From Candidatus Omnitrophota bacterium (lineage in GTDB: Bacteria; Omnitrophota; Gorgyraeia; Duberdicusellales; 4484-171): a DNA stretch of 64,000 nucleotides. A program made the position numbers and the translations under genes. The stretch is taken from contig JAFGQU010000013.1 of assembly GCA_016935525.1 (NCBI GenBank), positions 26,523-90,522 on the forward strand, given 5' to 3'. Shown here in pieces: positions 2,548 to 34,569 of this stretch. The notes under the pieces are model-generated. The model ran no database searches, was not told the DNA's origin, and saw nothing but the letters and a program-made list of their open reading frames with translations. Within the stretch, counting starts at the first letter, position 1, and the number at the start of each line of letters is the position of its first letter.

Positions 2548-2600
2548 TTAGTTCTAACTTATATAAAATTATCTTTGGTCTGTAACCGAAGAAGGGGATA

Positions 2601-3158: not shown

Positions 3159-3182
3159 CGGAAAGCCGAAAAAAACTATCCC

Positions 3183-17157: not shown

Positions 17158-17924
17158 TAAAAAGAATATTTTTTGCAGTCTTTGCGGTTTTGGCTGTTTT
17201 ATTTTTAGGGTTTTATATCTGGCTGTATCCGCAATACGAGGTGCCGGTCTTTATGTACCATTCGTTGAATGAAGCCCGGTTAGGTGAATATTCCGTCGTG
17301 CCGCTTGAGACTTTTCGTGCCCAGATGGAATATATCAAAAAGAACGGATATACGGTGTTGCGATTGGAAGAGTACTGCCGCCGGTTAAAAGAAGGCTTAA
17401 GTGTACCGCGGCATAGCGTGGTGATCACTTTTGACGACGGGCATCGTGATAATACGCGTGCGGTCGAGGTGCTGGACAGCCTGGATATCCCGGCAACCAT
17501 ATTCCTCATAGTCGATAAGATCGGAACCGAGGCCTATCTTACTAAAGAACAGGTCGTAGCATTTCTTCAAAATACCCCGGTCGATATCGGTTCGCACACG
17601 ATGAGCCATGCCTATTTACCGGACTTGGTCGATAGCGAAGTTTTCTATCAGATCAATGAATCTAAACATACCTTAATCGAAGAGTTCGGCGTGCCGGTTG
17701 AAACGCTCACCTATCCGGTAGGAGGGTTTAACGAAACCGTATTAAAAGAAGTAGAACATGCCGGGTACCTGTGCGCGTGCACTACGAACCGGGGATTTTC
17801 CAAAGAGAAACACCTGTTCGCGTTACGCCGGATCAAGATCACCGATCGTGACCGGGGGATAGCGCTATGGGCGAAACTGAGCGGGTATTATAACGTATTT
17901 AAAAAACCTAAAAATCCTTACTAA
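17154..17924 (+). CDS. polysaccharide deacetylase (CE4/NodB family), membrane-anchored
   Basis: Start ATG at 17154 overlaps the upstream TGA. N-terminal TM helix, then CE4 motifs VVITFDDGHRD and IGSHTMSHAYL. Confidence 0.75.
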   Translation: MIKRIFFAVFAVLAVLFLGFYIWLYPQYEVPVFMYHSLNEARLGEYSVVPLETFRAQMEYIKKNGYTVLRLEEYCRRLKEGLSVPRHSVVITFDDGHRDNTRAVEVLDSLDIPATIFLIVDKIGTEAYLTKEQVVAFLQNTPVDIGSHTMSHAYLPDLVDSEVFYQINESKHTLIEEFGVPVETLTYPVGGFNETVLKEVEHAGYLCACTTNRGFSKEKHLFALRRIKITDRDRGIALWAKLSGYYNVFKKPKNPY

Positions 17925-17930
17925 TGAAAA

Positions 17931-18100
17931 GTTACACGACACACGCCACACGCATGCCTGCTACGCAGGCCGTCACACGTTGCACGACACACGTCACATG
18001 TATTAATTCTTTCTCGACGTGTGACTATGTGACCTTGTGTCCTTGTGACTTGCCGAAGGCATACGTATGACGTGTGACCTTGTGACTATGTGACCTGCGT
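17931..18100. repeat. family-1 intergenic repeat element (GTCACA/TGTGAC octamer arrays), copy A
   Basis: Tandem NGTCACAN octamers followed by tandem NTGTGACN octamers, with embedded hairpins GCCTGCTACGCAGGC and TGCCGAAGGCA. Approximately the reverse complement of copy C at 44245-44408. Confidence 0.7.
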
Positions 18101-18103
18101 GTT

Positions 18104-19117
18104 ATGGAACGAGTACTCGTCGTCAACGTAAACTGGCTGGGTGACTGTATCATGACTTTGCCGGCATTCAGTGCCCTGAAGAAAGAATATCCCCACGTAT
18201 ATACCGCGGTAATGGCGCCGGGGCGGGTCGCCGAGATATTTGAAAAAGATCCTTCTATCGATGAGGTCCTGGTGTTTGACGAACGAACCACGCATCGGAG
18301 CCTGCCGGCGAAACTGCGGTTTATCCGTGCATTAAAAGAAAAGAGATTTGATACGGCGATATGTATCCATCGTTCGTGTACCCGTATATTGATCTGTCGG
18401 CTTGCCGGTATTCCCCGGAGGATCGGGTATCACCGCCGCAAGACTTCCTGGCTGATCAATCATAAAGTAAAACCGCCGGCAGGTACCGGGCATCGTCAGG
18501 ATTATTATTTGTGTCTTTTCGAAGCGGCCGCAATACCGGTAAAGACGAGGATTCCGCAGGTATTCATCGACGATGATGTGCGTCATCGTATGTATTACCG
18601 TCTGCAGAGGCCTGAGCATACGCACGCTCATCTTATCGGGGTACAGGTCTCGGCAAATTGGGACCAGAAACGCTGGCCGGCACAATCGTATGCCGAGTTG
18701 TGCGACCGGCTGATCAGCCGGTACTCCTGCGCGATATTCTTTGTCGGAACGCAAAAAGACGCCCCCGCGGTAAGCGCGGTCACCGAAAAAATGAAACGTA
18801 AGGATTTTTACGATTTTTGCGGACAGACGACTCTTTCCGAACTTGCCGCGGTTATGGAGAATTTTGATTTGTTTATATCCAACGATTCCGGGCCGGCGCA
18901 TCTTGCCGCGGCCGTCGGTATTCATACGCTTGTTCTTTTCGGTCCGACCGATCCGGAGGTCACCTCTCCGCGCGGTAAGTATGTCCATATCGTCAAAAGC
19001 GATGTGCCCTGCGTGATACCCTGTTATAAGACCGACTGTAAGGATAATTTCTGTATGAGCGGGATATCGGTCGATGAAGTGATAGAGACCGTACAGTACA
19101 TATTCGACAATGAATAA
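18104..19117 (+). CDS. LPS heptosyltransferase (GT9)
   Basis: VLVVNVNWLGDCIMTLPAFSALKKEYP N-terminus and C-terminal GPAHLAAAVG...LFGPTDP GT9 motifs. Confidence 0.8.
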   Translation: MERVLVVNVNWLGDCIMTLPAFSALKKEYPHVYTAVMAPGRVAEIFEKDPSIDEVLVFDERTTHRSLPAKLRFIRALKEKRFDTAICIHRSCTRILICRLAGIPRRIGYHRRKTSWLINHKVKPPAGTGHRQDYYLCLFEAAAIPVKTRIPQVFIDDDVRHRMYYRLQRPEHTHAHLIGVQVSANWDQKRWPAQSYAELCDRLISRYSCAIFFVGTQKDAPAVSAVTEKMKRKDFYDFCGQTTLSELAAVMENFDLFISNDSGPAHLAAAVGIHTLVLFGPTDPEVTSPRGKYVHIVKSDVPCVIPCYKTDCKDNFCMSGISVDEVIETVQYIFDNE

Positions 19118-20042
19118 AGGGATTTTAATAAATTTTCCTACGAATATCGGCGACGTGATCCTCTCTCTGCCGCTTCTAGACCGGATCAGGAGCCTTTATC
19201 CGGACCGTCCGATTACGGCGATCGTATCGTCCCGTACCCGCGAATTTTTAGAAGCGCATACGTTCATCGATGAAGTGATCGTGTTTGATAAACATTGGCC
19301 GGGTAAAACCAAATTGCAATTCGCTTTCCGGTTACGGAATAAATTCGATATCGTGGTCGATTTAAAGAATTCGCTTCTTCCTTTTGTGATCGCGCCACGG
19401 TGGCGGACCCGGTTTATCCGGTTTTTTAAACCTACCCAGCATATTACTCACCGTTATCTATCGCTGATCTCAAAACTGGGGTTGCCGGCGGCGACCGTAC
19501 GCGGAGACGTGCGCATCGCGGCCGAAAAAAAGGCCCGCTGGGATGGGTTGAATCTGTCCGGCGCGGTAGGCGTGGGCTGTTCTTCACAGTTTTATCTGAA
19601 ACAGTATCCTTACGAAAACTTAAAACAAGTGATCGAAAGATTGCACGGCCAATATCCGGTCGTGATCTTGGGCGAAGAAAAAGAACGCGGGTTCTACCGT
19701 GATATCCTTGGCCTGCCGGGGGTGAGAGACCTTGTCGGGAAGACTACGTTGACCGATGTGTTTTATATTTTAAAAAATTTCTGCCGGGTTATGGTCGCGG
19801 TCGATTCCAGCCTCATGCATATGGCCGGATACCTTAATGTGCCGGTCATCGGGTTGTTCGGCCCTACCGCGCCGGGCCGGTCCTATCCGCTTTCGGAAAA
19901 ATCGGTAATATTACAGAACACCCATATCATGTGTGTCCCCTGTGACGGTACATTATGTGAGCATGAGAATATATGTATGAATATCGATCCCGAAACGGTA
20001 ATCGGGACGGTAAGAGGTATTATCGATGCTGAAGGAGCCTGA
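19110..20042 (+). CDS. LPS heptosyltransferase (GT9) paralogue
   Basis: ILINFPTNIGDVILSLPLLDRIRSLYP N-terminus, LMHMAGYLNVPVIGLFGPT C-terminal motif. Confidence 0.75.
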   Translation: MNKGILINFPTNIGDVILSLPLLDRIRSLYPDRPITAIVSSRTREFLEAHTFIDEVIVFDKHWPGKTKLQFAFRLRNKFDIVVDLKNSLLPFVIAPRWRTRFIRFFKPTQHITHRYLSLISKLGLPAATVRGDVRIAAEKKARWDGLNLSGAVGVGCSSQFYLKQYPYENLKQVIERLHGQYPVVILGEEKERGFYRDILGLPGVRDLVGKTTLTDVFYILKNFCRVMVAVDSSLMHMAGYLNVPVIGLFGPTAPGRSYPLSEKSVILQNTHIMCVPCDGTLCEHENICMNIDPETVIGTVRGIIDAEGA

Positions 20043-21302: not shown

Positions 21303-22043
21303 TTGCAACCTAATATAACTAGAAAAATGATGACTCCGGAAACATATGTATTGCTCGGTACGGCACTGACGATAGGGTTTATTCATACCCTGTTCGGTCC
21401 GGACCATTATCTTCCTTTTATCGTAATGTCTAAAGCGCGTTCCTGGAGCATGACGAAGACTGCAGTGGTTACGATCCTCTGCGGGATAGGTCATGTGGCA
21501 AGTTCCATCGTTCTGGGATTTGTCGGTATTGCTTTGGGAGTTGCGGTATTCCATTTAGAGAATATCGAATCGGTCCGCGGAGAAGTCGCGGCCTGGCTGT
21601 TTTTAGCGTTCGGATTGGCTTATTTTATCTGGGGTATTCGTCATGTCGTGCGTCGGCGGGGGCATCATCACCGGCATGTCCATTTTGACGGAGAAATCCA
21701 CGATCACCCGCATACTCATCTTAAAGAACACAGCCATGTGCATAGCGGACCGAAAGGCGTGAACCTGACTCCCTGGATCCTGTTCACTATTTTTGTGTTT
21801 GGGCCGTGTGAACCGTTGATCCCGATCTTGATGTATCCGGCGGCGAAAGGGAATATGTTTTTGGTGGCAGCGGTTTCTCTCGTGTTCGGAATCACTACGA
21901 TCACGACGATGCTGGCTATCGTGCTTGCCGTCTCCTACGGGCTCGCGAAACTGCCGATGGGGCGGTTAGAAAGATATTCTCACGCTCTGGCCGGACTCGC
22001 GATTTTTCTAAGCGGCGCGGCGATCAAATTGTTCGGCCTTTAA
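21303..22043 (+). CDS. Ni/Co transporter, RcnA/NicO-like with central His-rich loop
   Basis: Six predicted TM segments. HTLFGPDHY resembles the RcnA HGLEPGHSK motif. His-rich loop RRRGHHHRHVHFDGEIHDHPHTHLKEHSHVHSG. GPCEPLIP resembles RcnA GLIPCP. Confidence 0.6.
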   Translation: MQPNITRKMMTPETYVLLGTALTIGFIHTLFGPDHYLPFIVMSKARSWSMTKTAVVTILCGIGHVASSIVLGFVGIALGVAVFHLENIESVRGEVAAWLFLAFGLAYFIWGIRHVVRRRGHHHRHVHFDGEIHDHPHTHLKEHSHVHSGPKGVNLTPWILFTIFVFGPCEPLIPILMYPAAKGNMFLVAAVSLVFGITTITTMLAIVLAVSYGLAKLPMGRLERYSHALAGLAIFLSGAAIKLFGL

Positions 22044-22117
22044 TCGGATTGTCAAAGGACACACAATAAAAAATTATTTGACAAGGTTTTGCGAATATGT
22101 TATCTTTGTCAAGATAT

Positions 22118-22135
22118 ATGTGAACGTATTCACAA
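22118..22135. promoter_or_regulatory. Rex operator upstream of the hydrogenase operon
   Basis: ATGTGAACGTATTCACAA matches the Rex box consensus TTGTGAA-N4-TTCACAA in 17 of 18 positions. A TTGACA -35-like hexamer lies 25 nt upstream. Confidence 0.6.
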
Positions 22136-22153: not shown

Positions 22154-23188
22154 ATGACTCAATACGTAATTCTTAATAAAACCGATCTTGACGAATTTAT
22201 TTCCCGTCTTGCTCAGATTAAAAAGACCGTCGCTCCCGTAAAACGGGGAGTGAAGAATTATGCGTTCGAAGAAGTCACCTCCGGAAAAAACGTCGCCGTA
22301 AAATATATACCTACTATTCTGCCTCCGAAAAAGTATTTCCTGCCTCAGACCGAAACGTTACAGCAGTATGATAAGAGTAAGAAGACCTGGAACGCGGTAA
22401 TGGAGTTTCAGGAAATGATCATATTCGGGGTCCATACCTGCGACCTTGCCGGTATCCAATGTCTTAATATGGCCTTTTCCGATAAACCCAAAGATATCAA
22501 TTATCTTGCCCGTAAGAACAGAATATTGATCATCGGCCTTGAATGTAATGATTATTGCGATGAATACGCGAGCTGTAAGGTGATGGATAACCATATGCCC
22601 AACGGAGGATATGACCTTTTCTTCACCGAACTCGATGACTTTTTTATGGTCCATATCAATACGCTCGAAGGTGAAGATTTGATCGAGAAGACCGGTTTGT
22701 TCAAAGAAGCGAAAGAAGAGCATAAGAAAGCCCTGAAAGCGATGAGGGAAGAGAAAAGGAAACGGTTTAAGGATGAAGTCAATGTGACCCATAACCAGTT
22801 AAAACCGCTATTCGATAAATCGTTCGAAGCGCCGGTGTGGCAGAGTCTCGAGGCGCGCTGTGTTTCCTGCGGAAATTGTACGAATGTCTGTCCTACCTGT
22901 TATTGTTTTGATATCGAAGATGAAATAGACCTGAATCTTACTACGGGCGTGAGAAAACGCCGGTGGGATTCCTGTCAAAACGAACCGTTTGCTCAAGTAG
23001 CCGGCGGTGAGAATTTCCGGGAAGCCCGCGGCGAACGCCAGCGTCACCGGTACCTGCGTAAATTCAAATATCCCGTAGATAAATACAGCCGGTATTTCTG
23101 TACCGGGTGCGGACGATGTTCCCGGACCTGTATGGCTAAGATTAATTTAAAAGAGACCATAAACGAGTTAGCCCAAGGAGCAAAATGA
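22154..23188 (+). CDS. [NiFe] hydrogenase (group 3b-like, sulfhydrogenase-type) beta subunit, 4Fe-4S protein
   Basis: C-terminal ferredoxin-like Cys clusters (CVSCGNCTNVCPTCYC, CTGCGRCSRTC). Position and architecture match HydB of the tetrameric sulfhydrogenase. Confidence 0.7.
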   Translation: MTQYVILNKTDLDEFISRLAQIKKTVAPVKRGVKNYAFEEVTSGKNVAVKYIPTILPPKKYFLPQTETLQQYDKSKKTWNAVMEFQEMIIFGVHTCDLAGIQCLNMAFSDKPKDINYLARKNRILIIGLECNDYCDEYASCKVMDNHMPNGGYDLFFTELDDFFMVHINTLEGEDLIEKTGLFKEAKEEHKKALKAMREEKRKRFKDEVNVTHNQLKPLFDKSFEAPVWQSLEARCVSCGNCTNVCPTCYCFDIEDEIDLNLTTGVRKRRWDSCQNEPFAQVAGGENFREARGERQRHRYLRKFKYPVDKYSRYFCTGCGRCSRTCMAKINLKETINELAQGAK

Positions 23189-24021
23189 AAAGAGTTACCT
23201 TAAAAGAATCGGCGTATAACGTAAAGACCGGGAAGATCCTTGTCGCAAAAATGCTTACCGCCCAGGAGAAATATTTTAAGATCGCTCTAGCCGGAGGTGA
23301 GAGCCTCGACCATGAGCCGGGACAGTTCGTGATGGTAGCGGTTCCGGGGGTGGGTGAGGCGCCGATTTCGGTCTCTTCTTCGCCTACGATCAGAGGGTAT
23401 TTTGAATTGGTCGTACGTGATGCCGGTAAACTGACTCATGTATTACATCAATTAGAAGCCGGCGATACGGTGGGTATCCGCGGACCGTTCGGCGTGGGAT
23501 TTCCTACCCAGATCTTAGAGGGAAACGACCTGGTGTTTGTTGCCGGAGGGTTGGGGATCGTTCCGTTACGGTCGCTGATCAATTTTGTGATTGATAACCG
23601 CCGTGATTTCGGAAAGGTGAGTATTCTCCTTGGGTGTAAGACTCCTCAAGATATGCTGTTTGGCGATGAGGTCGATCAATGGGAAAAACGGCTTGATGTG
23701 AATTTCAATTGTACCGTCGATAAAGCCGATCCCGATTGGAAAGGAAACGTCGGCTTGATCACTTCGTTGATTCCGGGGGTGACTCTTGATATCGAACGGA
23801 CGTTCGCTATCGTAGTCGGCCCGCCGATCATGTATAAATTCGTCATTGCCGAACTGCTTAAGAAGAACATCCCTGAACGGCAGATCTATCTTTCCCTGGA
23901 GAGGCACATGAAGTGCGGGGTTGGCAAGTGCGGCCATTGTCAGATCGGAGATGTGTATTGCTGTCAGGACGGGCCGGTATTTTCTTATGATAAGATAAAA
24001 AATAATATTGAGGCCTTATAA
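23185..24021 (+). CDS. hydrogenase gamma subunit, FAD/NAD(P)-binding oxidoreductase with 2Fe-2S (PyrK-like)
   Basis: Ferredoxin-reductase fold (GIRGPFGVGF, VAGGLGIVP) and C-terminal CGVGKCGHCQIGDVYCC cluster. Confidence 0.75.
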   Translation: MKRVTLKESAYNVKTGKILVAKMLTAQEKYFKIALAGGESLDHEPGQFVMVAVPGVGEAPISVSSSPTIRGYFELVVRDAGKLTHVLHQLEAGDTVGIRGPFGVGFPTQILEGNDLVFVAGGLGIVPLRSLINFVIDNRRDFGKVSILLGCKTPQDMLFGDEVDQWEKRLDVNFNCTVDKADPDWKGNVGLITSLIPGVTLDIERTFAIVVGPPIMYKFVIAELLKKNIPERQIYLSLERHMKCGVGKCGHCQIGDVYCCQDGPVFSYDKIKNNIEAL

Positions 24022-24023
24022 TC

Positions 24024-24791
24024 ATGAAAAAACCAAAAGTAGCTTTTTTTGATTTTTCTTGTTGTGAAGGATGTCAGTTGCAGGTTGCTAATTTCGGAGA
24101 AGGATTGTTAGATATCTTAAACCTTATTGAGGTCGTAGAGTTTCGTGAAGTAATGTCCGAAAAATGGGAAGGAGATTTTGATGTCGCGATAGTAGAGGGG
24201 AGCATTACGACCCCTCACGGCGTCGAACGGATAAAAAAGATCAGAGACCGCTCTAAAGTATTGATCGCCTACGGGTCCTGTGCGACTATCGGCGGCATCA
24301 ATGGGATGAAAAATAAATTCGATTTAGACGAGATCAAAGAGTATGTATATAAAGACGGCGCAAAATATTTCGAAACGATTCCGACTCGGCCGGTGCATCA
24401 GGTGGTAAAAGTCGATTACTTTGTGCACGGCTGCCCGGTATATCAGCCGGAATTCGTAAAGGTATTGAAATGCGCTTTACAGGGTATTCCGTATACGGTG
24501 CCGGATCATTCGGTCTGTGTGGAATGTAAACTGAACGAAAACGAGTGTATGTATGATAAAGGGCTTACTTGTTTAGGGCCGGTCACCCGGGCCGGATGTA
24601 ATTCCTGGTGTATTAATAACGGGAATATCTGTTACGGATGCCGGGGGATGGTGAGTAATCCTGCGAAAAACGGGCAGATGGATATCCTGGAGAAACATAA
24701 TATCCCGCTTGACTGGGTAGTGAATAAGATCGATATGTACAATAAACCGCGTGAATTAGAGGAGACCGAGACCAATGGCAAGAAACGTTAA
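24024..24791 (+). CDS. [NiFe] hydrogenase small (delta) subunit
   Basis: N-terminal FDFSCCEGCQL (NuoB/HycG-like proximal cluster motif) and additional C-terminal Cys clusters. Confidence 0.8.
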   Translation: MKKPKVAFFDFSCCEGCQLQVANFGEGLLDILNLIEVVEFREVMSEKWEGDFDVAIVEGSITTPHGVERIKKIRDRSKVLIAYGSCATIGGINGMKNKFDLDEIKEYVYKDGAKYFETIPTRPVHQVVKVDYFVHGCPVYQPEFVKVLKCALQGIPYTVPDHSVCVECKLNENECMYDKGLTCLGPVTRAGCNSWCINNGNICYGCRGMVSNPAKNGQMDILEKHNIPLDWVVNKIDMYNKPRELEETETNGKKR

Positions 24792-26100
24792 AGTCAATGT
24801 CGAGTATCTGACCCGGGTCGAAGGGCACGGGAATATCGTCGTAAATGTCAAAGAAGGTAAATTAGAGGAATGCCGTCTTGATATCGTCGAGTCGCCTCGT
24901 TTCTTCGAAGGTATGTTACGGGGACGTTCTATTTTCGAAGCCCAGCATATCACTTCCCGGATCTGCGGGATCTGCGCCTGCGGCCACACTCTGGCTTCGA
25001 TCCAGGCCGCCGAAGATGCTATCGGGTTTATACCGTCAGAGCAGACTACTATGTTGAGAAAATTGCTTCTTCATCAGGAGAATCTTGACAGCCATATCCT
25101 GCATATCTATCTGTTGGTCGCCCCGGACCTGCTGGGGGTAAAAAGTTTTGTTCCGCTTATCGATACTCATAATAAAGTCGTCCGGCGGGCTTTGCGGATG
25201 AAGAAGAGCTGTAACGATGTCTGCGATATCCTGGTCGGCCGTCATGTCCATCCGATCTCGGCTATCGTCGGAGGATTTACCAAATTACCGCGCGAAAAAG
25301 ACCTGGATGCGATGATGGATATTTTGGTCAGTATGCGCGCGGATATGGATGCGACCGTCGAGTTATGTAAAACGTTGAAGTTCCCTCAGTTTGAACGGGA
25401 AACCGAGTATGTTGGGTTAGTCAGCGATGATGATGAATACCCGATGCTCATCGGCGATGTCGGCTCGACTGACGGGAAACGTATGGATAAACATGAGTAT
25501 CGTAAGATCACCAACGAGTTCGTGATGCCGCATTCTTCGGCTAAACACGCCAAATGGAACCGTGAATCGTATATGGTGGGGGCGCTCGCCCGGGTGAATC
25601 TGAACTACAAGAAGCTTCATCCTAAAGCCAAGGCCGTCGCCGATTTCCTGGGGTTACATAAGATCTGTTACAACAGTTTTCTCAATACCGCAGCGCAATT
25701 GGTCGAATGTATCCATTCACTGGAAGAATCGATCGCGATCCTCGAATATTTTAAAAACCATGGCGTCAAGCATGAGGAAGCTCTGGTGGTAGGGTTGAAC
25801 GAAAAAAAGACTATTCCGGTAAAAGCCGGTAACGGTGTCGGCGCGGTGGAGGTGCCTCGCGGGCTCCTTTTCCATAACTATGAAGTTGACGATGACGGTA
25901 AGATCGTCAATGCCAATTGCATTATCCCTACTTCTCAAAACGTCAATAGTATCGAACATGATATGAAAAAACTGGTACCTCAGATCCTTGAGAAGTCCGA
26001 TGAAGAGATCACTCTGATGATGGAGATGCTGGTACGGGCTTATGATCCCTGTATATCGTGTTCGGCCCATTTCCTCGATGTCAAATTCGTTAACCGCTAG
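24775..26100 (+). CDS. [NiFe] hydrogenase large (alpha) subunit
   Basis: N-terminal RICGICACGHT (L1 Ni-binding CxxC) and C-terminal DPCISCSAH followed by a 9-aa extension (protease cleavage site). Confidence 0.9.
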   Translation: MARNVKVNVEYLTRVEGHGNIVVNVKEGKLEECRLDIVESPRFFEGMLRGRSIFEAQHITSRICGICACGHTLASIQAAEDAIGFIPSEQTTMLRKLLLHQENLDSHILHIYLLVAPDLLGVKSFVPLIDTHNKVVRRALRMKKSCNDVCDILVGRHVHPISAIVGGFTKLPREKDLDAMMDILVSMRADMDATVELCKTLKFPQFERETEYVGLVSDDDEYPMLIGDVGSTDGKRMDKHEYRKITNEFVMPHSSAKHAKWNRESYMVGALARVNLNYKKLHPKAKAVADFLGLHKICYNSFLNTAAQLVECIHSLEESIAILEYFKNHGVKHEEALVVGLNEKKTIPVKAGNGVGAVEVPRGLLFHNYEVDDDGKIVNANCIIPTSQNVNSIEHDMKKLVPQILEKSDEEITLMMEMLVRAYDPCISCSAHFLDVKFVNR

Positions 26101-26563
26101 TGTCCTTTCTGCGTTACGCCGGTATCCCGGCCACAATGTTTTTATTACCGTAGGGAACAGTTTACGGAGTGATGACGGTGTGGGGCCGTATATCTCATCG
26201 GTTCTGGAAAATCTCAAAGACCTGAGTGTGATCGCTGCCGGACAGAATCCCGAGAACGTGATCGATAAGGTGGCCGGGTTGCGTCCCGCCCGTATCCTTA
26301 TTATCGATGCGGCTGATTTCGGGAAGAACCCCGGTTATACCCAGATCGTGGACCGTGAACATATCCCCGAGACCAGTGTCAGTACGCATGCGATTTCATT
26401 GAAAGTCATCGCTCATCTTATAGAGGAAGATACCGGCGTGGCTGTGGAATTTCTGGGTATTCAGCCGCAATCGGTCGAGTTGAAAGAAGGGTTATCCCCG
26501 CAGGTAAAAGAGACTGCCGATGCGATTATCGCCGTAATCAGGAAGGAGTTTTCTCATGCATGA
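26078..26563 (+). CDS. hydrogenase maturation endopeptidase (HycI/HyaD family)
   Basis: FITVGNSLRSDDGVGPYI and IIDAADFG motifs. Start is uncertain: ATG 26078 or 26042, either overlapping the large-subunit gene. Confidence 0.7.
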   Translation: MSNSLTASVLSALRRYPGHNVFITVGNSLRSDDGVGPYISSVLENLKDLSVIAAGQNPENVIDKVAGLRPARILIIDAADFGKNPGYTQIVDREHIPETSVSTHAISLKVIAHLIEEDTGVAVEFLGIQPQSVELKEGLSPQVKETADAIIAVIRKEFSHA

Positions 26564-26798
26564 GATGCATTTGGTAAAAGACCTATTTGAAGATGTTTTA
26601 ACCCATGCTCGCAATAACCAGGCCGATAAGGTGACGAAAGTATACCTTAAAATGGGCGAGTTTACCGAGATCAATGAAGAGGTGCTCCGGTTCTTTTTCA
26701 AAGAAAAAGGGGCCCAGACAATATTAGAAGGTGCCGAATTAGTCATCGAAAAAAGCCCGGCCCGCGAATTACGGCTGGTATCGTTTGATTGCGAGTAA
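26556..26798 (+). CDS. hypA: HypA-like nickel-insertion protein, N-terminal fragment lacking the Zn-finger (possible pseudogene)
   Basis: Starts MHEMHL (HypA MHE Ni-binding N-terminus). Ends at ...ELVIEKSPARELRLVSFDCE*, exactly where the first CxxC of the Zn finger should begin. The stop codon abuts the family-2 repeat. Confidence 0.45.
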   Translation: MHEMHLVKDLFEDVLTHARNNQADKVTKVYLKMGEFTEINEEVLRFFFKEKGAQTILEGAELVIEKSPARELRLVSFDCE

Positions 26799-26893
26799 AG
26801 ATGCAGATGATCGCTGATTTTGGATTCACACAGATGATCGCTGATATTATATCTGTGGCAATCTGTGATTCTCTGAATCTGTGATCATCAGCG
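26799..26893. repeat. family-2 intergenic repeat cluster (CAGATGATCGCTGAT / ATCTGTGATCATCAG units), locus E1
   Basis: Two forward units (GCAGATGATCGCTGAT, CACAGATGATCGCTGAT) and three ATCTGTG units in the opposite orientation within 95 nt. Confidence 0.6.
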
Positions 26894-26912
26894 TGAAGGA
26901 GCGAAGCGACGA

Positions 26913-28211
26913 ATGTGTTATGCTATTCCCGGAAAAGTAAAACGGTTCCAAGATAAGTTTGTCATTGTCGATTATTTCGGCGAAGAACGCCGGGCGTATA
27001 ATGAGCTGGATGATCTCTCAATCGGAGACTATATTTACGCTCAGGGCGGTTACGCCATCCAAAAGATAGCATCGGATGAGGCCGAAAGTATATTGATGAC
27101 GTGGAAAGAGACTTTTTTTGAATTACAGGAAGTCGACCTCCAACTTTCCCGGATGGATCTTGAATCTAAAGACCTTTCGCTCCGAGTCGTCGGGCTGCTT
27201 GATAAAGTGAATCACGGGTTTTCTTTAAAAACCGACGAGTTGGAATACATCCTTGGCCTTGAAGATGAAAAAGAAAAAGAGTTTATATGTAAAAATGCGA
27301 ATTTTTTAAGGCAGAAATATCATAAGAACGCCTGTTGTGTGCATGGGATCATCGAGATATCCAACCGGTGCGCCCGGGATTGTCATTATTGCGGTATTTC
27401 TACGTTTAATAATAATCTTATCCGGTATCATATGGACGCGGATGAGATATTCGCGGTCGCTCAAAAAGCCGTCAAAGAATATAGTTTTAAAGCATTGGTC
27501 TTACAGAGCGGTGAAGAGTGCGGGTATAATACCCGTGAATTGGCGGGAGTGATCTCGAAAATCCGCCGTGAATTAGGCGCGTTGGTATTTATCAGTTTTG
27601 GCGAGATATCTCTTGAAGCTCTCGATCAGTATTATCAGGCCGGGGCCAGAGGGATATTGTTGCGGTTTGAGACGTCGAACGAAGGATTATATAACCGTCT
27701 TCATCCCGGAGGAGCATTGGCTAGGCGTATTGATTTGATCCGGGCGGCCGATAAGCGGGGCTATCTGGTCGCAACCGGCGGTCTCATCGGGTTGCCGGGG
27801 GCGACTGCGCATGATATCGTGAACGATGCTTTGTTAGCTAAAGAGCTGAACGCCGAGATGTATTCGTTCGGCCCGTTTATTCCATCGCACGATACGCCGC
27901 TTTCACAATCTTTTTCGGTCTCACCGGATTATATGCGGATGGTCATCGCCCTTATCCGGCTGGTCGATCCTGCGAAAGGGAAAATATTAGTGACTACGGC
28001 ATTTGAAACGTTAGACCCTTTAGCCAGGCGCCAGGGGCTGCTGTGCGGCGCGAATTCGGTTATGCTGAATGTGACTCCCCGCAGGTACCGTCAGCTTTAT
28101 TCGATTTATCCCGGACGGGCTCACCAGTCGCAGTCGATCCCTGAACAGATAGAAGAGACTATTGTATTACTCAAGTCTTTAGGCCGCGCGCCTACGGATC
28201 TGGGTATTTAA
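26913..28211 (+). CDS. hydE: fusion protein: HypC/HupF-like domain (N-terminal) joined to HydE-type radical-SAM maturase
   Basis: N-terminal MCYAIPGKV...VDYFGEERRAYNEL...GDYIYAQGGYAIQKI matches the HypC signature (MC-x-AIP, essential Cys2). From ~aa 95: EISNRCARDCHYCG (CxxxCxxC), YLVATGGLIGLPG, GANSVMLNVTPRRYRQLYSIYPGR match HydE. Confidence 0.7.
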   Translation: MCYAIPGKVKRFQDKFVIVDYFGEERRAYNELDDLSIGDYIYAQGGYAIQKIASDEAESILMTWKETFFELQEVDLQLSRMDLESKDLSLRVVGLLDKVNHGFSLKTDELEYILGLEDEKEKEFICKNANFLRQKYHKNACCVHGIIEISNRCARDCHYCGISTFNNNLIRYHMDADEIFAVAQKAVKEYSFKALVLQSGEECGYNTRELAGVISKIRRELGALVFISFGEISLEALDQYYQAGARGILLRFETSNEGLYNRLHPGGALARRIDLIRAADKRGYLVATGGLIGLPGATAHDIVNDALLAKELNAEMYSFGPFIPSHDTPLSQSFSVSPDYMRMVIALIRLVDPAKGKILVTTAFETLDPLARRQGLLCGANSVMLNVTPRRYRQLYSIYPGRAHQSQSIPEQIEETIVLLKSLGRAPTDLGI

Positions 28212-28236
28212 TCTAACCGGAACGATTCACAACATT

Positions 28237-28254
28237 TTGTGAATTTTATCACAA
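28237..28254. promoter_or_regulatory. Rex operator upstream of rex (autoregulation)
   Basis: TTGTGAATTTTATCACAA matches TTGTGAA-N4-TTCACAA in 17 of 18 positions. An adjacent TTCACAA-N4-TTGTGAA palindrome lies at 28225-28242. A TTGACA-16-TACACT promoter at 28259-28286 overlaps. Confidence 0.5.
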
Positions 28255-28322
28255 AATATTGACATCCCGGAAGAATATGGTACACTTGTGTTTCTTTAAA
28301 AATAGGCAGGGAGGCCACCACG

Positions 28323-28991
28323 ATGGTAAATAAGAATTATATTATACGTCTTTCTAATTATCGTCACGCTTTGAACCGGTTTAAAACGTTGGGCTTTATT
28401 AAGGTTTTTTCCGACAATCTGGCTGACGCCACCGGGGTGACTTCATCTCAGGTCCGTAAAGATTTTTCGATCTTCGGGATATCCGGGAACAAAAAGGGGG
28501 GGTATCAGGTCGAACTATTATTGGAACGATTAAATGATATCCTCGGTAAAGACCGGCTTCAACGCGTGATCATCGTGGGTGCCGGTAAAATAGGTAAGGC
28601 GCTTATCAATTATAAAGGATTTGAAAAAGACGGCATAAAAGTTGTCGCCGCTTTTGACGTGAATACGGCTGACCGGGTTCCGGTTGAGATCGATGTCCCG
28701 GTGTATCCTCTGGAGAAATTAAAAAATTACGTGAAGAAGAATAACATTGAAATCGGGGTTATCGCCGTACCGGATAACGCGGCTCAAGGGGTAATGGATC
28801 TTCTGGTAGAGTCGGGGATAAAAGGGGTATTGAATTTCGCGCCGATACGGTTACGTTCCGATACCGATACGATCATCAATAACGTGGATCTGCGTTCGGA
28901 ACTGGAAAATCTCGTTTATTTCGTGAACGCGACCGGGAAATCGAAAGCCAGAAATAATGATAAAGGTAAAAAGAATAGAGAAGAGCAATGA
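28323..28991 (+). CDS. rex: redox-sensing transcriptional repressor Rex
   Basis: Winged-helix N-terminus (VTSSQVRKDFSIFG) and Rossmann NADH-binding domain (IIVGAGKIGKAL). 222 aa. Confidence 0.85.
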   Translation: MVNKNYIIRLSNYRHALNRFKTLGFIKVFSDNLADATGVTSSQVRKDFSIFGISGNKKGGYQVELLLERLNDILGKDRLQRVIIVGAGKIGKALINYKGFEKDGIKVVAAFDVNTADRVPVEIDVPVYPLEKLKNYVKKNNIEIGVIAVPDNAAQGVMDLLVESGIKGVLNFAPIRLRSDTDTIINNVDLRSELENLVYFVNATGKSKARNNDKGKKNREEQ

Positions 28992-30490
28992 GTATCACGC
29001 ATAATAAAAAAAACCTGGAAATTTGGATAAAAAACCGTGTACGTCATGACCAGGTCGATAAGTACCTGCATGATCAGAAAGATTTTATCGATGAGGATAA
29101 GATCTTTACCGCGTTAGAAGCCGGGAAATCTCCGGATGCCGGGTATGTGAGAGATATTCTCAAGAAATCTCTGGCTATCGAAACGCTTAATCTTGATGAA
29201 ACGGCGGCCCTTCTCAACGTGACTGATCCGGACTTGTTAGCTGAGATGAGGCAGACCGCCGCAGCGGTGAAAAAGAAAGTGTATGATAACCGGATCGTCA
29301 CGTTCGCGCCTTTGTATCTTTCTAATTTCTGCGTGAACAATTGTCTTTACTGCGGGTTTCGCAGCGATAACATCCTCGCTCGGCGCCGGACGCTTTCAAT
29401 CGACGAGGTAAAGCGGGAAATCGAAGTCCTGGCCGGTACTATCGGGCATAAACGGCTGATCGTCGTGTACGGTGAACATCCTCAAAGTGATATCGATTAT
29501 ATGGTCGATACTATCGCTGCGATCTATGAGGTGAAGGTGAAGACCAAAAAAGGGGTCGGACAGATCCGCCGGGTGAACGTGAATGCCCCGCCGCTTTCGG
29601 TTGAATCGTTACGGTCTTTGAAGGAAGTCGGAATCGGGACCTACCAGGTGTTTCAGGAGACATACCACCACGATACCTACCGCCGCCTTCATCCTCAAGG
29701 TACGATAAAAGGCGATTACCGTTGGCGCCTTTATTGTATGCATCGGGCGTTTGAGGCGGGTATAGATGATGTGGGTATCGGCGTGTTATTCGGGTTGTAT
29801 GACTGGAAATTCGAAGTGCTGGGACTGGTGACTCACGCCCGTATCCTGGAAGCCCATTGCGGGGTAGGCCCGCATACGGTATCGTTTCCGCGGCTGGAAG
29901 AGGCTACGCATATCCCGTTTACGTTACAGAGTAAGTATCGGGTACGTGACGAAGATTTTAAGAAAATAGTGACGGTATTGCGCTTGGCGATCCCTTATAC
30001 CGGAATGATCCTTACCGCCCGGGAAACCGCGTCGATGCGCCGGGAGACTATTGGCTTGGGAGTGACCCAGATCGACGCGTCAACGCGTATCGGTATCGGA
30101 GCCTATAGCGACCGATCAGAAGAACAGGAAGGACGCCGTCAGCAGTTTTTGCTCGGCGATACCCGCAGTTTAGATGAGGTAATCCGTGAACTGGCCCGTG
30201 ACGGGTATATTACCTCGTTCTGTACCGCGGGATATCGTTGCGGACGGACCGGTGAGTGTATCATGGAATTGCTTAAAACCGGTAAAGAAGGACAGTTCTG
30301 TAAATTAAATGCCATCCTTACTTTTCGCGAATGGCTTGACGATTTCGCTTCAAAACCGACCCAGGATATTGGCGAAGAGATCATCAATAAAGAACTTGAT
30401 GAAGTGAAAAAAAACATACCCGGAATGTATCCTCATTTGGTCGAGTATTATGAGCGGGTAGCTCAAGGCGAACGCGACCTCTATTTTTAA
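28988..30490 (+). CDS. hydG: HydG-type radical-SAM protein (tyrosine-lyase family, ThiH/HydG-like)
   Basis: FAPLYLSNFCVNNCLYCGF radical-SAM motif typical of HydG/ThiH. At 500 aa it is HydG-sized, with a C-terminal Cys cluster (FCTAGYRCGRTGEC...FC). Confidence 0.65.
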   Translation: MSITHNKKNLEIWIKNRVRHDQVDKYLHDQKDFIDEDKIFTALEAGKSPDAGYVRDILKKSLAIETLNLDETAALLNVTDPDLLAEMRQTAAAVKKKVYDNRIVTFAPLYLSNFCVNNCLYCGFRSDNILARRRTLSIDEVKREIEVLAGTIGHKRLIVVYGEHPQSDIDYMVDTIAAIYEVKVKTKKGVGQIRRVNVNAPPLSVESLRSLKEVGIGTYQVFQETYHHDTYRRLHPQGTIKGDYRWRLYCMHRAFEAGIDDVGIGVLFGLYDWKFEVLGLVTHARILEAHCGVGPHTVSFPRLEEATHIPFTLQSKYRVRDEDFKKIVTVLRLAIPYTGMILTARETASMRRETIGLGVTQIDASTRIGIGAYSDRSEEQEGRRQQFLLGDTRSLDEVIRELARDGYITSFCTAGYRCGRTGECIMELLKTGKEGQFCKLNAILTFREWLDDFASKPTQDIGEEIINKELDEVKKNIPGMYPHLVEYYERVAQGERDLYF

Positions 30491-30587
30491 TTTGAGAGAG
30501 TTGAAAAACATACTATCACGCTATCTGAGTACAATGAGTATAGAATGATCGCGGCGGTATATATATTTTCTCAATAGGATTGATTTT

Positions 30588-31559
30588 ATGGAATATTCTC
30601 GTATTGCACAATTGGAACTGCCGGTTTCAAAAATCGGATTAGGGTGCTGGGCGTTCGGCGGCGATAGCTGGTGGGGGCCGCAGAACGATCACGATTCACT
30701 GGAGGTTCTTGATCAGGCATTAAAAAGTGAGATCACTCTGATCGATACCGCGCCGGTATACGGACGGGGCCGGTCGGAAACTATTATCGGGAATTTCTTG
30801 AGAAAACGCAAGGTAAGAGAGAAAGTCATCCTTGCGACAAAACTGGGGCTGGCTTGGGAAGGGCCGAATATCCTTCATGATTTAAGTGAAAAAAGGATGC
30901 GTCAGGAATTGGATGCATCACGCCGGCGTCTTTGTACCGATTATTTCGATATCTATCAGGTCCATTGGCCTGACCCTAACATCCCGATCGGTGAGACCGC
31001 GCAGGTGATGCATGAGTTTTACCAAAAAGGTATTATCAAAGCGGTGGGGGTAAGTAATTATTCCGTGGACCAGATGGAAGAGTTTATGAAATATTGTCCG
31101 GTCCATAGCCTTCAACCGCAATACAGCATGTTTGTCCGTGACATCGAGCATGAGACCGTACCATTTTGTGTGCGGCACAATATCGCTATTTTTGCGTACG
31201 CGCCGCTGTATAGCGGGCTTTTAACGGGAAAATTCTTTTTGAACGGAGAAAAAATACCCGATGATACCAACCGGAAGATGAAGCGGAAAGATCTGGAAGA
31301 ACCGTTATTTTCCGTGAATCGTGCGATACTCCAGGAATGTAAAGAGATAGCGTGTGGGTACGGGAAATCGCTTACCCAGCTGGTGATCAATTGGACCTCT
31401 CATCAAGAAGGGATCAGTTCGGTCCTGGTCGGTTCGCGCAGCCGTACCCAGATATGCGAAAATGCCGCAGGAGCCGGTTGGGAAATCTCCGAAAGTGATC
31501 AGGCAAAGATCGATACTCTCTTGCGGCAACGGCAGGAAAAAATAAAAAGTTTAAGATGA
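30588..31559 (+). CDS. aldo/keto reductase
   Basis: AKR motifs GLGCWAFGG, LIDTAPVYGRGRSE, IKAVGVSNYS. Confidence 0.85.
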   Translation: MEYSRIAQLELPVSKIGLGCWAFGGDSWWGPQNDHDSLEVLDQALKSEITLIDTAPVYGRGRSETIIGNFLRKRKVREKVILATKLGLAWEGPNILHDLSEKRMRQELDASRRRLCTDYFDIYQVHWPDPNIPIGETAQVMHEFYQKGIIKAVGVSNYSVDQMEEFMKYCPVHSLQPQYSMFVRDIEHETVPFCVRHNIAIFAYAPLYSGLLTGKFFLNGEKIPDDTNRKMKRKDLEEPLFSVNRAILQECKEIACGYGKSLTQLVINWTSHQEGISSVLVGSRSRTQICENAAGAGWEISESDQAKIDTLLRQRQEKIKSLR

Positions 31560-32491
31560 ACATCCTCGTTACCGGGGCGACCGGGTTTATCGGCAGGCAT
31601 CTTGTACGGAATTTAAGCCGGCATACCGAGTATACTATTTTTGGTCTTACCCGTAACCTTAAGAGAATATCCCCGCCGGTTTCAAGTAATATCCAGTATC
31701 TTCAGGGCGATATAACCTGCCGGGAATCTCTGGATGTTCTGGCTCATCGGAATTTCGATATCGTATTTCATTGCGCCGCCTGCGTGGAGAATGCTCCGAA
31801 AGAGGCGTTGTATCGTACTAATGTGCTGGGTACAAAAAATATCTGTGAGTGTGCGCTTAGAGCGAGAGTATCGCGCCTGGTCTATACCAGTTCGGTCGCG
31901 GTAATAAGCGGTAATGATCGGGCGCCGTTTACCGAAGACATGCCTTATCGCGCGACAAATCCTTACGGCGATTCGAAGATAGCGGCCGAAAAAATAGTGT
32001 GGGACTATCGTGAGAAAGGGGTCCCGGCAGCTATTGTGCGTCCGCCGATGGTGTACGGAGCCGATGAACCGCATATGTTAGGGATATTGTTGACTTTGCT
32101 CCGCTTGCGGATGTTACCGTTTTTAAACGACGGAGCTCAAGCGTTTCATCTGGCTTATGTGGAAAATGTAGTCGCGGCGTTGACTTTGGCGGCGACCCAT
32201 GAAGGGTTTTTGGAGGGTACTTATTTTGTCGCCGATGAAGACGTGTTGTCATATAAAGAAGTCGTTACCTTTTTATGTGAAGGGTTAGGAGTAAAAGTCC
32301 CCGGCCGACTGCCGCGTATGTTCGATGGCCTGGTTGATGCGGTTCCGTGTATGAAGAAGAAAAAAGACCGGCTTTTAAGGCCGAGACAATACTGTCTTGA
32401 CCGTATCCACGCCCTCGGATTTAAAGCTCCTTATGCGGCGAAAGAGAGCCTCATCCTGAGCGCCCGTAATTTCACTGGTCGAGCGTCGTGA
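31556..32491 (+). CDS. NAD-dependent epimerase/dehydratase (SDR family)
   Basis: ILVTGATGFIGRHLV Rossmann motif and YGDSK catalytic YxxxK. Confidence 0.75.
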   Translation: MNILVTGATGFIGRHLVRNLSRHTEYTIFGLTRNLKRISPPVSSNIQYLQGDITCRESLDVLAHRNFDIVFHCAACVENAPKEALYRTNVLGTKNICECALRARVSRLVYTSSVAVISGNDRAPFTEDMPYRATNPYGDSKIAAEKIVWDYREKGVPAAIVRPPMVYGADEPHMLGILLTLLRLRMLPFLNDGAQAFHLAYVENVVAALTLAATHEGFLEGTYFVADEDVLSYKEVVTFLCEGLGVKVPGRLPRMFDGLVDAVPCMKKKKDRLLRPRQYCLDRIHALGFKAPYAAKESLILSARNFTGRAS

Positions 32492-32576
32492 GTCCTGCCC
32501 GCTCCCGACCTGTCGGGAGGGCTGGCGAGCGTACGTCGAGCGTTTTAGGGAACGAAAAAAAGGAAGAGAAAGATCG

Positions 32577-33188
32577 ATGAGCAAGAAAGTGTTTGCGTTT
32601 GATTTAGGGAGGGTCCTTTTCGATTTCGATATCCGTATCGCTCTGCGGGCTTTGGGCAGTACCAGCGAAATGTCCCAAGAGAAGATACTGGAGGCGATTT
32701 ATTATGAGAATTTCGGAGTCGAGTACGAGAAGGGATTAATCACTAATTTCGAGTTTTATAAAAGATTTTCCGACAAGTTCGGGCTTAAAAATAAATACGA
32801 AGACTTTACTGAAGCCTGGTGCGGCATGTTTTCGCCTAAGAATGAGATGATCGAATTTGTCGCAAAGCTCCGCCGGATGTATCCGCTCTATATGATCTCT
32901 AATATCAGCGATCTGCATTTTGAGTATCTGTTTGAAAAATACCGGTACGTCTTTGATTATTTCCGTGGCCTCGTCCTATCGTTTAAAGAGAGATCGGTCA
33001 AACCGGAGGAGAAGATCTATAAAACCCTTGAGACACTCTGCGGGGTTCCTCGGCAGGATATCATCTATATCGATGACCGCCAGGATCTTATTGAGGCGGC
33101 TGAGGGTATGGGGTTCTGTTCTATCCAATTCAAAGATCTCGCCAGATTAATCGAAGATTTAGAAAAAGCAGGAATTGCTCTTCCTTGA
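32577..33188 (+). CDS. HAD-superfamily hydrolase (putative)
   Basis: HAD-like motifs: FAFDLGRVLFD (motif I variant), MISNIS (II), KPEEK (III), IYIDDRQD (IV). Confidence 0.5.
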   Translation: MSKKVFAFDLGRVLFDFDIRIALRALGSTSEMSQEKILEAIYYENFGVEYEKGLITNFEFYKRFSDKFGLKNKYEDFTEAWCGMFSPKNEMIEFVAKLRRMYPLYMISNISDLHFEYLFEKYRYVFDYFRGLVLSFKERSVKPEEKIYKTLETLCGVPRQDIIYIDDRQDLIEAAEGMGFCSIQFKDLARLIEDLEKAGIALP

Positions 33189-33331
33189 TCAGAAATCCCA
33201 CAATTATTTTAACTTCGTTACACTATAGACCATAGATTAGGCGAGATAACATCTTGTCATTGGAAAAAACGGTTGATATAATAAAAAGAGTACGATTTTT
33301 AAGCAAACATAGAAAATGGAAGGGAGGAAGA

Positions 33332-33715
33332 ATGAAGGTTCCAAATTTACTCGTGTTGTGCGCGTTCATCTTTTCCGGATGTGTGCCGGTGCTGCTGGGA
33401 GCCGGAGCGGTTACCGGGTATATGCTCAGTAATGATTATGCGTTAGGTAATGTGAAGACCGATTACCGTACTTTGTGGGATACGTCTTTAGATACAGTGA
33501 GTACTGCCGAATTCAATATCGTGGAAGCGAACGAATCAAAAGGTATCATTAAAATAAAAGATTCCGATGTCGATGTGACGATCAAGATCGACAGCCTGGC
33601 CGTAGACGAACAACGACTGAAAGTATCTTCGCGGAAATATCTTATCCCGAAACCCGCGTATTCTCAGAAAATATTCTTCCGGATCATTCGTGGGTTAGAT
33701 ATGGAATTAGAGTGA
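33332..33715 (+). CDS. hypothetical lipoprotein
   Basis: MKVPNLLVLCAFIFSGC lipobox after the GGGAGG RBS. No recognisable domain. Confidence 0.5.
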   Translation: MKVPNLLVLCAFIFSGCVPVLLGAGAVTGYMLSNDYALGNVKTDYRTLWDTSLDTVSTAEFNIVEANESKGIIKIKDSDVDVTIKIDSLAVDEQRLKVSSRKYLIPKPAYSQKIFFRIIRGLDMELE

Positions 33716-34470: not shown

Positions 34471-34558
34471 TTGTGGTCACACGACACACGTCACAAGGTC
34501 ACACGTAAAGAAAACAGGTGATTTACCTGTGACGTGTGACTATGTGACTTTGTGACCC
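34471..34558. repeat. family-1 repeat element, copy B
   Basis: GGTCACACGACACACGTCACAAGGTCACACG, a 22-nt spacer, then TGTGACGTGTGACTATGTGACTTTGTGACC. Confidence 0.7.
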
Positions 34559-34569
34559 GAATAAAAGGT

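Follow-up and report, generated by a model that had tools for sequence, protein, structure and literature searches.

Predicted Rex operators at the promoters of a group 3b-type [NiFe] hydrogenase operon and of rex in Candidatus Omnitrophota

The DNA considered here is a 64-kb stretch from the genome of an uncultured Candidatus Omnitrophota bacterium (the window, in what follows), in which an operon for a [NiFe] hydrogenase is followed by rex, the gene for a redox-sensing transcriptional repressor. Its subject is a pair of 18-bp inverted repeats, one upstream of the hydrogenase genes and one upstream of rex, for which a preliminary description of the sequence had proposed a role as Rex operators. 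All genes of the hydrogenase-rex region lie on the + strand, and the region comprises the following features.

22078 to 22106, + strand: predicted sigma-70-type hydrogenase promoter (-35 TTGACA at 22078-22083, 17-nt spacer, extended -10 TGTTATCTT at 22098-22106)
22118 to 22135, no strand: Rex box 1, at about +6 to +23 of the predicted transcript
22154 to 23188, + strand: shyB, beta subunit; best Pfam/NCBIfam match to a sulfhydrogenase subunit
23185 to 24021, + strand: shyC, gamma subunit; best Pfam/NCBIfam match to a sulfhydrogenase subunit
24024 to 24791, + strand: shyD, delta subunit; best Pfam/NCBIfam match to a sulfhydrogenase subunit
24775 to 26100, + strand: shyA, alpha subunit; best Pfam/NCBIfam match to a sulfhydrogenase subunit
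26042 to 26563, + strand: hycI, protease; maturation gene by Pfam/NCBIfam
26556 to 26798, + strand: short hypA, 80 aa, with an N-terminal MHE nickel motif
26913 to 28211, + strand: hypC::rSAM, a HypC::HydE-like radical S-adenosylmethionine (SAM) fusion, 432 aa (HypC/HupF at aa 1-75, then a radical SAM/BATS domain)
28237 to 28254, no strand: Rex box 2, at about -56 to -39 of the rex promoter, ending 4 nt before its -35
28259 to 28286, + strand: predicted rex promoter (-35 TTGACA at 28259-28264, 16-nt spacer, extended -10 TGGTACACT at 28278-28286)
28323 to 28991, + strand: rex, redox-sensing transcriptional repressor, 222 aa (NF003996, PF06971 and PF02629, PDB Rex matches)
28988 to 30490, + strand: hydG-family radical SAM maturase (TIGR03955, 460 bits against a cut-off of 312)

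Box 1 reads ATGTGAACGTATTCACAA and box 2 reads TTGTGAATTTTATCACAA. Each differs at a single position from TTGTGAANNNNTTCACAA, which amounts to 13 of the 14 specified positions or 17 of 18 when the N's are counted, and both the location of the two 18-mers and the degree of match given in the preliminary description are confirmed. They are the only matches to TTGTGAA-N4-TTCACAA with at most one mismatch in the 64-kb window. With a position weight matrix (PWM) built from 20 non-redundant sites of related loci, the window sites excluded, box 2 scored 26.5 bits and box 1 19.9 bits, the next-best position of the window reached 8.8, and the scan found no further Rex box in the rest of the 64 kb. The intergenic DNA is AT-rich, as is the motif besides its GTG and CAC, and chance palindromes without function might be suspected on that ground. 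Against this, no match with at most one mismatch arose in 100 dinucleotide-preserving shuffles of the window, both PWM scores lie above every one of 100 Markov shuffles (best position in any, 17.5 bits; mean maximum, 10.7), and the position and sequence of the boxes are conserved in many loci, as described below. Conservation, together with these statistics, effectively refutes the chance explanation, to which we give practically no weight; both sites are real. A three-mismatch match at 22049-22066 (TTGTCAAAGGACACACAA) was considered as a second operator and rejected, as it scored 4.0 bits and is not conserved in the closest related locus, L002 (related loci are denoted by L numbers). Other three-mismatch matches, at 44782, 48842, 50677, 52142, 60811, and 62792, were likewise rejected, with scores of at most 8.8 bits, under the shuffle mean maximum.

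Both boxes lie in or next to the predicted promoter of the genes they would regulate. The hydrogenase promoter, TTGACA-17-TATCTT with TG before the -10, has 10 of 12 consensus matches, is among the two best in the 10-kb region scanned, and would place the transcription start near 22113. Box 1 begins 11 nt past the -10 and stops 4 nt short of the Shine-Dalgarno sequence; the ATG lies 19 nt beyond the box, at 22154, where the beta-subunit gene does begin downstream of it, as had been noted. The rex promoter has TACACT (28281-28286) as its -10 hexamer, and the site upstream of rex had been said to overlap this TTGACA-16-TACACT promoter; this is slightly wrong, as the box stops 4 nt 5' of the -35 and so abuts the promoter without overlap. 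Just the extended palindrome touches the promoter, since the arms of box 2 can be lengthened to 13 nt (28230-28242 and 28249-28261) and then enter the first 3 nt of the -35. As a separate observation, a third half-site, TTCACAA (28226-28232), lies 4 nt 5' of box 2, giving three half-sites with 11-bp spacing, and it is partly retained in L002 as ATCACAG. A scan of the + strand from 26300 to 28323 gave no terminator-like site, and transcription from the hydrogenase promoter may therefore continue into rex.

The placement of box 1 raises the question of whether the inverted repeats act as RNA hairpins, that is, as stabilizers or attenuators rather than protein operators, since box 1 would lie in the 5' untranslated region (UTR) and could form a 6-bp stem. 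The predicted fold of that 5' UTR has a free energy of -5.8 kcal/mol (z = -0.1 against shuffles), and the hairpin interpretation of box 1 was rejected for want of thermodynamic support. Box 2 lies upstream of its own promoter, the same specific sequence is found, with no compensatory changes, in different lineages and at two promoters that are unrelated, and an Rfam scan of the whole 64-kb window gave no matches. Taken together, these observations make RNA hairpins a highly improbable account of the repeats.

The protein that would act at the two boxes is encoded inside the same cluster, and the presence of a rex gene there, at 28323, is confirmed. Its product scored 240.4 bits with NCBIfam NF003996 (cut-off 138) and also passed the cut-offs of NF003995, NF003989, and NF003994, and it carries both Pfam domains of the family, the N-terminal winged helix (PF06971) and the C-terminal Rossmann domain (PF02629). 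Residues 6-204 align to PDB Rex chains with E values of 1e-40 to 1e-28, the relatives being those of Streptococcus agalactiae, Thermoanaerobacter ethanolicus, Bacillus subtilis, Thermotoga maritima, and Thermus. In a motif alignment made with PDB entries 3KEO, 3WG9, and 2VT2, the recognition helix SSQVRKDFSIFG aligns to SATVRRDFSYFG, the GxGxxG motif VGAGKIGKAL (core GAGKIG) to VGCGNIGRAL, the acidic residue after beta-2 (AAFDVN) to that of MAFDLD, and the C-terminal domain-swap helix DLRSELENLVYF to DLTSELQTLLYF. By these family and motif matches, the protein is a bona fide Rex, for which both DNA binding and NADH binding are predicted. With a 4-nt overlap between the end of rex and the start of hydG, co-transcription and translational coupling of the two genes are probable.

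Conservation of the boxes was assessed in 97 related loci totaling 1.08 Mb, drawn from metagenome-assembled genomes (MAGs) and metagenomes and collected by a large-subunit scan (one genome per species) and a beta-subunit metagenome scan. All 17 boxes with at most one mismatch in this sequence, and 11 of the 18 with two mismatches, fall within 450 nt upstream of shyB or rex, regions that make up 4.2% of the 1.08 Mb searched. In the closest relative, L002 (ShyB 88% and Rex 87% identical), the stretch between -35 and start codon aligns base for base with that of the window at both promoters; no half-site has changed, and the spacers are the most variable stretch of the conserved promoter blocks (window versus L002: CGTA versus CACG in box 1, TTTTA versus AAAAG in box 2). 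Invariant half-sites with variable spacers are the footprint that would be expected of a dimeric DNA-binding protein.

At shyB, the boxes recur in more distant loci at orthologous promoters. All seven of the loci L019-L025 (ShyB 64-71% identical) have a box with at most one mismatch that ends 17-78 nt before the shyB start. In five of them (L019, L020, and L022-L024), it lies atop the -10 of the shyB promoter, between the -35 and the start site, which is the classic position for occlusion; the box of L021 is located past the -10, like box 1 of the window, and that of L025, where no promoter was assigned, about 80 nt before shyB. Among loci with ShyB at about 50% identity, L036, L043, L077, and L090 have a TTGACA promoter followed by a box, a short HypA-like open reading frame (ORF; MHETHL...), and shyB. 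L087 has two boxes with two mismatches each in the same arrangement, L083 a two-mismatch box just 5' of the promoter, and L097 a box without mismatches, 261 nt before shyB. The gene directly 5' of shyB in L003 is rex, whose start has a box 16 nt 5' of it; rex also precedes shyB in L070, the contig ending inside rex. In L099-L101, which were retrieved via the HypC fusion, no box with at most three mismatches was found in the relevant position.

The boxes also accompany rex itself. A box lies within 200 nt upstream of 11 of the 13 rex genes with enough upstream sequence, the remaining two being L055, which has two identical copies of an 18-mer with three mismatches (TTGTGAAATAAGGAACAA), and L022, where rex lies 62 nt behind hypC::rSAM in an operon with a box before shyB. 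In L100 and L101, rex overlaps the preceding gene and the operon start is outside the locus. When the upstream regions of 12 rex genes were lined up (L002, L003, L007-L009, L023, L032, L037, L055, L061, L062, and L085), 10 had the -35 hexamer 4-5 nt downstream of a box with no more than two mismatches (the hexamer is TTGACT in L023 and L037 and TTGACA in the other eight); L055 has one of its three-mismatch copies at that position, and in L003 the box lies downstream of the promoter. A second box is found in 10 of the 12 (not L002 or L003), immediately before the start codon, with the sequence TTGTGAA-N4-GGAGCAA or a close variant (3855-3872 in L007, 5915-5932 in L008, 13420-13437 in L009, and 15895-15912 in L037), and its degenerate right half, GGAGCAA, is also the rex Shine-Dalgarno sequence. 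As judged from these alignments, this rex promoter architecture is conserved and previously undescribed, and an arrangement of two boxes flanking the polymerase site would fit well with repression.

These data bear on a second explanation, in which a regulator of the CRP/FNR family binds the boxes and the site 5' of the rex -35 is an activator site. Every box holds the CRP core TGTGA-N6-TCACA by construction, several relatives have halves resembling TGTGAT...ATCACA, and box 2 has the location usual for an activator site, upstream of the -35. The flanking positions argue for Rex, however, as T at position 1 and A at position 18 each occur in 36 of 40 cases in the symmetrized site set, in agreement with the Rex consensus. 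The box tracks rex itself in the 11 of 13 loci described above, often with a second copy over the rex ribosome-binding site, which is the position of a repressor, and no CRP/FNR-family Pfam domains were found among the roughly 60 larger ORFs of the window that were scanned. We therefore regard control by a CRP/FNR-type protein as very unlikely.

A different doubt concerns box 2 alone. It may be that Rex binds there but that a single box centered near -47 does not repress, being a remnant of the two-box arrangement or even a positive element, in which case rex-hydG would not be negatively autoregulated. Most relatives (L007-L009, L023, L032, L037, L055, L061, L062, and L085) have the second box over the Shine-Dalgarno sequence, of which the window and L002 keep a mere TTGTG, at a different place, and the center of box 2 is outside the -35/-10 core. 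On the other side, box 2 is the top-scoring site of the window, and L002 keeps the same half-sites and the same 4-nt distance from the -35 with all five central positions changed, which indicates selection. A dimer bound at box 2 would probably collide with sigma region 4 and the RNA polymerase alpha-CTD, since the extended palindrome runs into the -35. A non-repressing box 2 appears unlikely to us on this evidence, and repression from the sole upstream box in the window is nevertheless the least certain part of the proposed mechanism.

The genes behind box 1 encode a hydrogenase whose best models for shyBCDA are those of the Pyrococcus sulfhydrogenase subunits (NF040829, NF040830, NF040831, and NF040832/NF040828). 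Scores of 170-276 bits compare with cut-offs of 460-880 for the Pyrococcus Hyd/Shy equivalogs, so that the enzyme is best described as a distant relative of Hyd/Shy and not an equivalog, group 3b-type by its predicted subunit makeup, that is, by the order beta-gamma-delta-alpha and a gamma subunit with FAD-, NAD-, and Fe-S-binding domains (PF00970, PF00175, and PF10418). ShyA (441 aa) has the [NiFe]-site motifs RICGICACGH and DPCISCSAH, which conform to RxCGxC and DPCxxC. The earlier designation of the hydrogenase as NAD(P)-linked is reasonable because the gamma subunit has FAD- and NAD-binding domains. Omnitrophota enzymes of the shyBCDA type have been termed group 3b, and group 3b is the sole hydrogenase of several Omnitrophota genera, where it is thought to discard surplus reductant (PMC8542988).

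Together, we interpret both inverted repeats as operators of the Rex encoded at 28323-28991, controlling the hydrogenase and rex-hydG, and assign this reading a probability of about 0.82. At a low NADH/NAD+ ratio, a Rex dimer would occupy box 1, just downstream of the hydrogenase promoter, and block open-complex formation or promoter escape, leaving shyBCDA-hycI-hypA(-hypC::rSAM) off. Rex would also occupy box 2, directly 5' of the rex -35, and compete there with the alpha-CTD and sigma region 4 of RNA polymerase, so that rex-hydG would be kept low and autoregulated. As NADH rises, its binding would close the Rex dimer and cause Rex to leave the DNA; the NAD(P)H-linked hydrogenase would then be made and surplus reductant vented as H2, and more Rex, providing negative feedback, and HydG would be produced. 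We infer the NADH response and the sign of regulation from the established behavior of the Rex family, and the transcription starts, Rex binding, release by NADH, and catalytic direction of the hydrogenase in this scheme are likewise predicted. The earlier proposal that Rex controls the hydrogenase and rex in response to NADH/NAD+ is supported as a prediction by the conserved boxes at orthologous promoters and the identity of the Rex protein.

Several points weigh against this interpretation. The core TGTGA-N6-TCACA is common to Rex and CRP-type sites, so the motif alone is insufficient to separate a CRP-type regulator from Rex. Group 3b enzymes are usually NADPH-using, and Rex is a sensor of NADH. 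For box 2, whose center is 5' of the -35, the position is not that of textbook occlusion, and the second box that most relatives have over the rex Shine-Dalgarno sequence has been lost from both the window and L002. Finally, 6 of the 14 loci of the nearest shyB clade (L003-L006, L009, and L010) have no box within 450 nt of shyB, although L003 among them has one before the rex that precedes shyB, and the link between box and shyB therefore appears to be lineage-specific and not universal.

Two of the loci with a boxless shyB have another arrangement of the leader. In L006 (7300-7374) and L005 (400-645), shyB has a consensus promoter, TTGACA-17-TATAAT, and a terminator-like hairpin with a T-run directly before its ribosome-binding site, and this leader may represent attenuator or riboswitch-type control in place of Rex. 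In L007-L009, rex, behind a Rex box, heads an operon (13443-20860 in L009) with a Cache-domain histidine kinase, a NuoF/GltD-like fusion, and an [FeFe] hydrogenase that has TSCSP and not TSCCP. To judge from this gene order, rex autoregulation in these lineages would also govern the [FeFe] enzyme.

The genes between the hydrogenase subunits and the end of hydG form an unusual set of maturation factors. HypA is a short form, conserved in relatives, without the C-terminal CxxC...CxxC zinc domain. The HypC fusion has the N terminus MCYAIPG (Cys2) and the radical SAM motif CARDCHYC and scored 227 bits with the HydE model TIGR03956, under the cut-off of 254.6. Homologues with 56-78% identity to it fall into at least 120 protein clusters; of the clusters with an organism name, the majority are from Omnitrophota, with inconsistent annotation as HydE, HypC chaperone, or biotin synthase, and a protein 100% identical to that of the window has been deposited from a 161-kb contig of a Candidatus Omnitrophica MAG. 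HydG has the radical SAM motif CVNNCLYC, in keeping with CX3CX2C. The auxiliary cluster of canonical HydG is bound through a C-terminal CX2CX22C motif. The window protein departs from the corresponding C(T/A)ACYR-x22-C pattern, with CTAGYRCGRTGEC...FC near 30221, and two HydG subtypes occur in or beside the clusters: canonical C(T/A)ACYR...C (L022, L034, L068, L073, L085, L087, and L091) and CTAGYRCGRTG(E/K)C...FC, as in the window (L002, L004, L099, and L100).

Most related loci with the region recovered have the protease, the 80-aa HypA, and then the HypC fusion, and the HydG-family gene near the fusion lies behind rex or directly behind the fusion. L100 (1-16049) and L101 share the gene order of window positions 26042-35325 from hycI through short hypA, hypC::rSAM, rex, hydG, aldo-keto reductase, epimerase, HAD hydrolase, and SNase to an M48 peptidase. 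In these two loci, the block sits behind a group 4 Mbh/Mrp membrane hydrogenase rather than group 3b, which indicates that the module of maturation genes and rex occurs with more than one kind of [NiFe] hydrogenase. On the 1.27-Mb Omnitrophota contig CP070684.1, short hypA, the fusion, and hydG are found by themselves as a trio.

To our knowledge, HydG and HydE-like enzymes are known only from assembly of the [FeFe] H-cluster, and a literature search on a role of HydG or a HypC-radical-SAM protein in [NiFe] maturation found nothing relevant. Judging by genomic context, the Omnitrophota rex is embedded in a mobile maturation module, and it is conceivable, if rather doubtful, that the HydG and HypC-fused HydE-like enzyme of this module take over from HypDEF in providing these [NiFe] hydrogenases with their Fe-CO/CN unit. 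If so, the NADH level would govern, through Rex, the synthesis of the enzyme and of its cofactor alike. Regular-expression signatures of HypD (GPGCPVC) and HypE (PRIC-stop) were found in L071 only among all related loci, a result that says little about genome-wide absence; a PRIC-stop match in L011 was rejected as HypE, as it falls at the end of shyA. An ordinary Rex-controlled hydrogen island, with two maturation systems merely co-located, seems at least as likely, given the hydF-hydG-hydE set of L004 and the NAD(P)H-linked [FeFe] hydrogenase operon behind rex in L007-L009. In L004, hydF (partial), hydG, and a canonical hydE (360 bits) occupy 14-3424, directly 5' of a group 3b operon that has its own HypC::rSAM fusion downstream, and neither a Rex box nor a rex gene was found in the 18 kb of this locus.

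Two further observations concern the maturation genes. The 114-nt gap between hypA and hypC::rSAM contains, at 26799-26897, direct and inverted repeats (CAGATGATCGCTGAT twice and AATCTGTGAT twice), and its predicted fold is a long hairpin (-39.9 kcal/mol, z = -2.8) that stops immediately 5' of the Shine-Dalgarno sequence; the counterpart in L002 is shorter and its fold is not significant. In L034, an NfnAB-like pair (sulfide dehydrogenase-like FAD/NAD and GltD-like subunits; 17276-19575) follows hydG behind the group 3b cluster and would connect the hydrogenase with the pools of NADPH, NADH, and ferredoxin.

Beyond hydG, an aldo-keto reductase gene and then an epimerase gene follow, and the rest of the window holds genes for lipid A/lipopolysaccharide, purine, fatty-acid, and leucine biosynthesis and for DNA repair; no other hydrogenase, hyp, or hyd genes were found in the rest of the 64 kb. 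An identical 11-kb contig is present in the Logan assembly of SRR13394437. Directly 5' of the hydrogenase promoter, 21303-22043 (+ strand) encodes a 246-aa membrane protein with a weak DsbD_2 match, kept in L002 at 64% identity, which may be a metal (nickel) transporter. GC skew is positive in every 2-kb window and all family-matched long ORFs are on the + strand across the 64 kb, a pattern suggestive of one replichore in which genes and replication are strongly co-oriented.

In comparison with known systems, the boxes have the same 18-bp inverted repeat as those of Rex/ROP in Streptomyces coelicolor, Bacillus subtilis, and Staphylococcus aureus. The S. aureus consensus is TTGTGAAW4TTCACAA (PMC2883068), and the CGTA spacer of box 1 differs from its W4 in containing G and C. 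The protein resembles the Rex of these three species in its predicted winged helix, Rossmann fold, and swapped C-terminal helix, whereas Rex in those species acts on genes of respiration and fermentation (cyd, ldh, adh, and others). In the Thermococcales, the redox-responsive factor SurR activates group 3b-type sulfhydrogenase genes; the resemblance to Rex is functional only, as SurR is an activator from a different protein family that senses through a CxxC switch and recognizes a different DNA motif.

The closest parallel in wiring is Caldicellulosiruptor bescii, for which binding of Rex upstream of [NiFe] (Ech) and [FeFe] hydrogenase genes, hydG, and rex has been shown by electrophoretic mobility shift assay (EMSA) (PMC6391272, Sander et al. 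2018/2019). The two systems share the consensus upstream of hydrogenase, hydG, and rex genes as well as derepression at high NADH, which is predicted for the window. They differ in that C. bescii is a Gram-positive thermophile with a membrane-bound Ech [NiFe] enzyme, whereas the window derives from diderm Omnitrophota with a cytoplasmic group 3b-type enzyme, and in that rex and hydG are separate transcription units in C. bescii but one predicted rex-hydG unit, embedded in the hydrogenase cluster, in the window. The operators of C. bescii are backed by EMSA, and those of the window are predicted from sequence. In Calderihabitans maritimus KKC1, a Rex-like motif, TTGTGA-N6-TCACAA, lies upstream of the CO-induced group 3b cluster hyd-3b (PMC7306483), and the window likewise has a Rex motif upstream of group 3b, the transcripts of C. 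maritimus being induced under reducing (CO) conditions. That organism is a Firmicute in which the motif came from a search among differentially expressed genes and rex lies outside the cluster, whereas in the window rex is inside the cluster and the site is backed by conservation across lineages. In groundwater Elusimicrobia, rex genes adjoin [FeFe] hydrogenases (bioRxiv 10.1101/765248).

The predicted operators extend the Rex regulon, described mainly in Gram-positives, Thermotogae, and a few others, to Candidatus Omnitrophota and neighboring uncultured lineages. They suggest a regulatory link for the single hydrogenase of Omnitrophota, with H2 production turned on when NADH accumulates, which would be of use in reading metatranscriptomes of anoxic sediments and groundwater. 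No new mechanism is involved, because the same wiring is known from experiment in C. bescii and has been predicted for group 3b in C. maritimus; what is found is a known type of regulation, correctly predicted for a lineage in which it is new.

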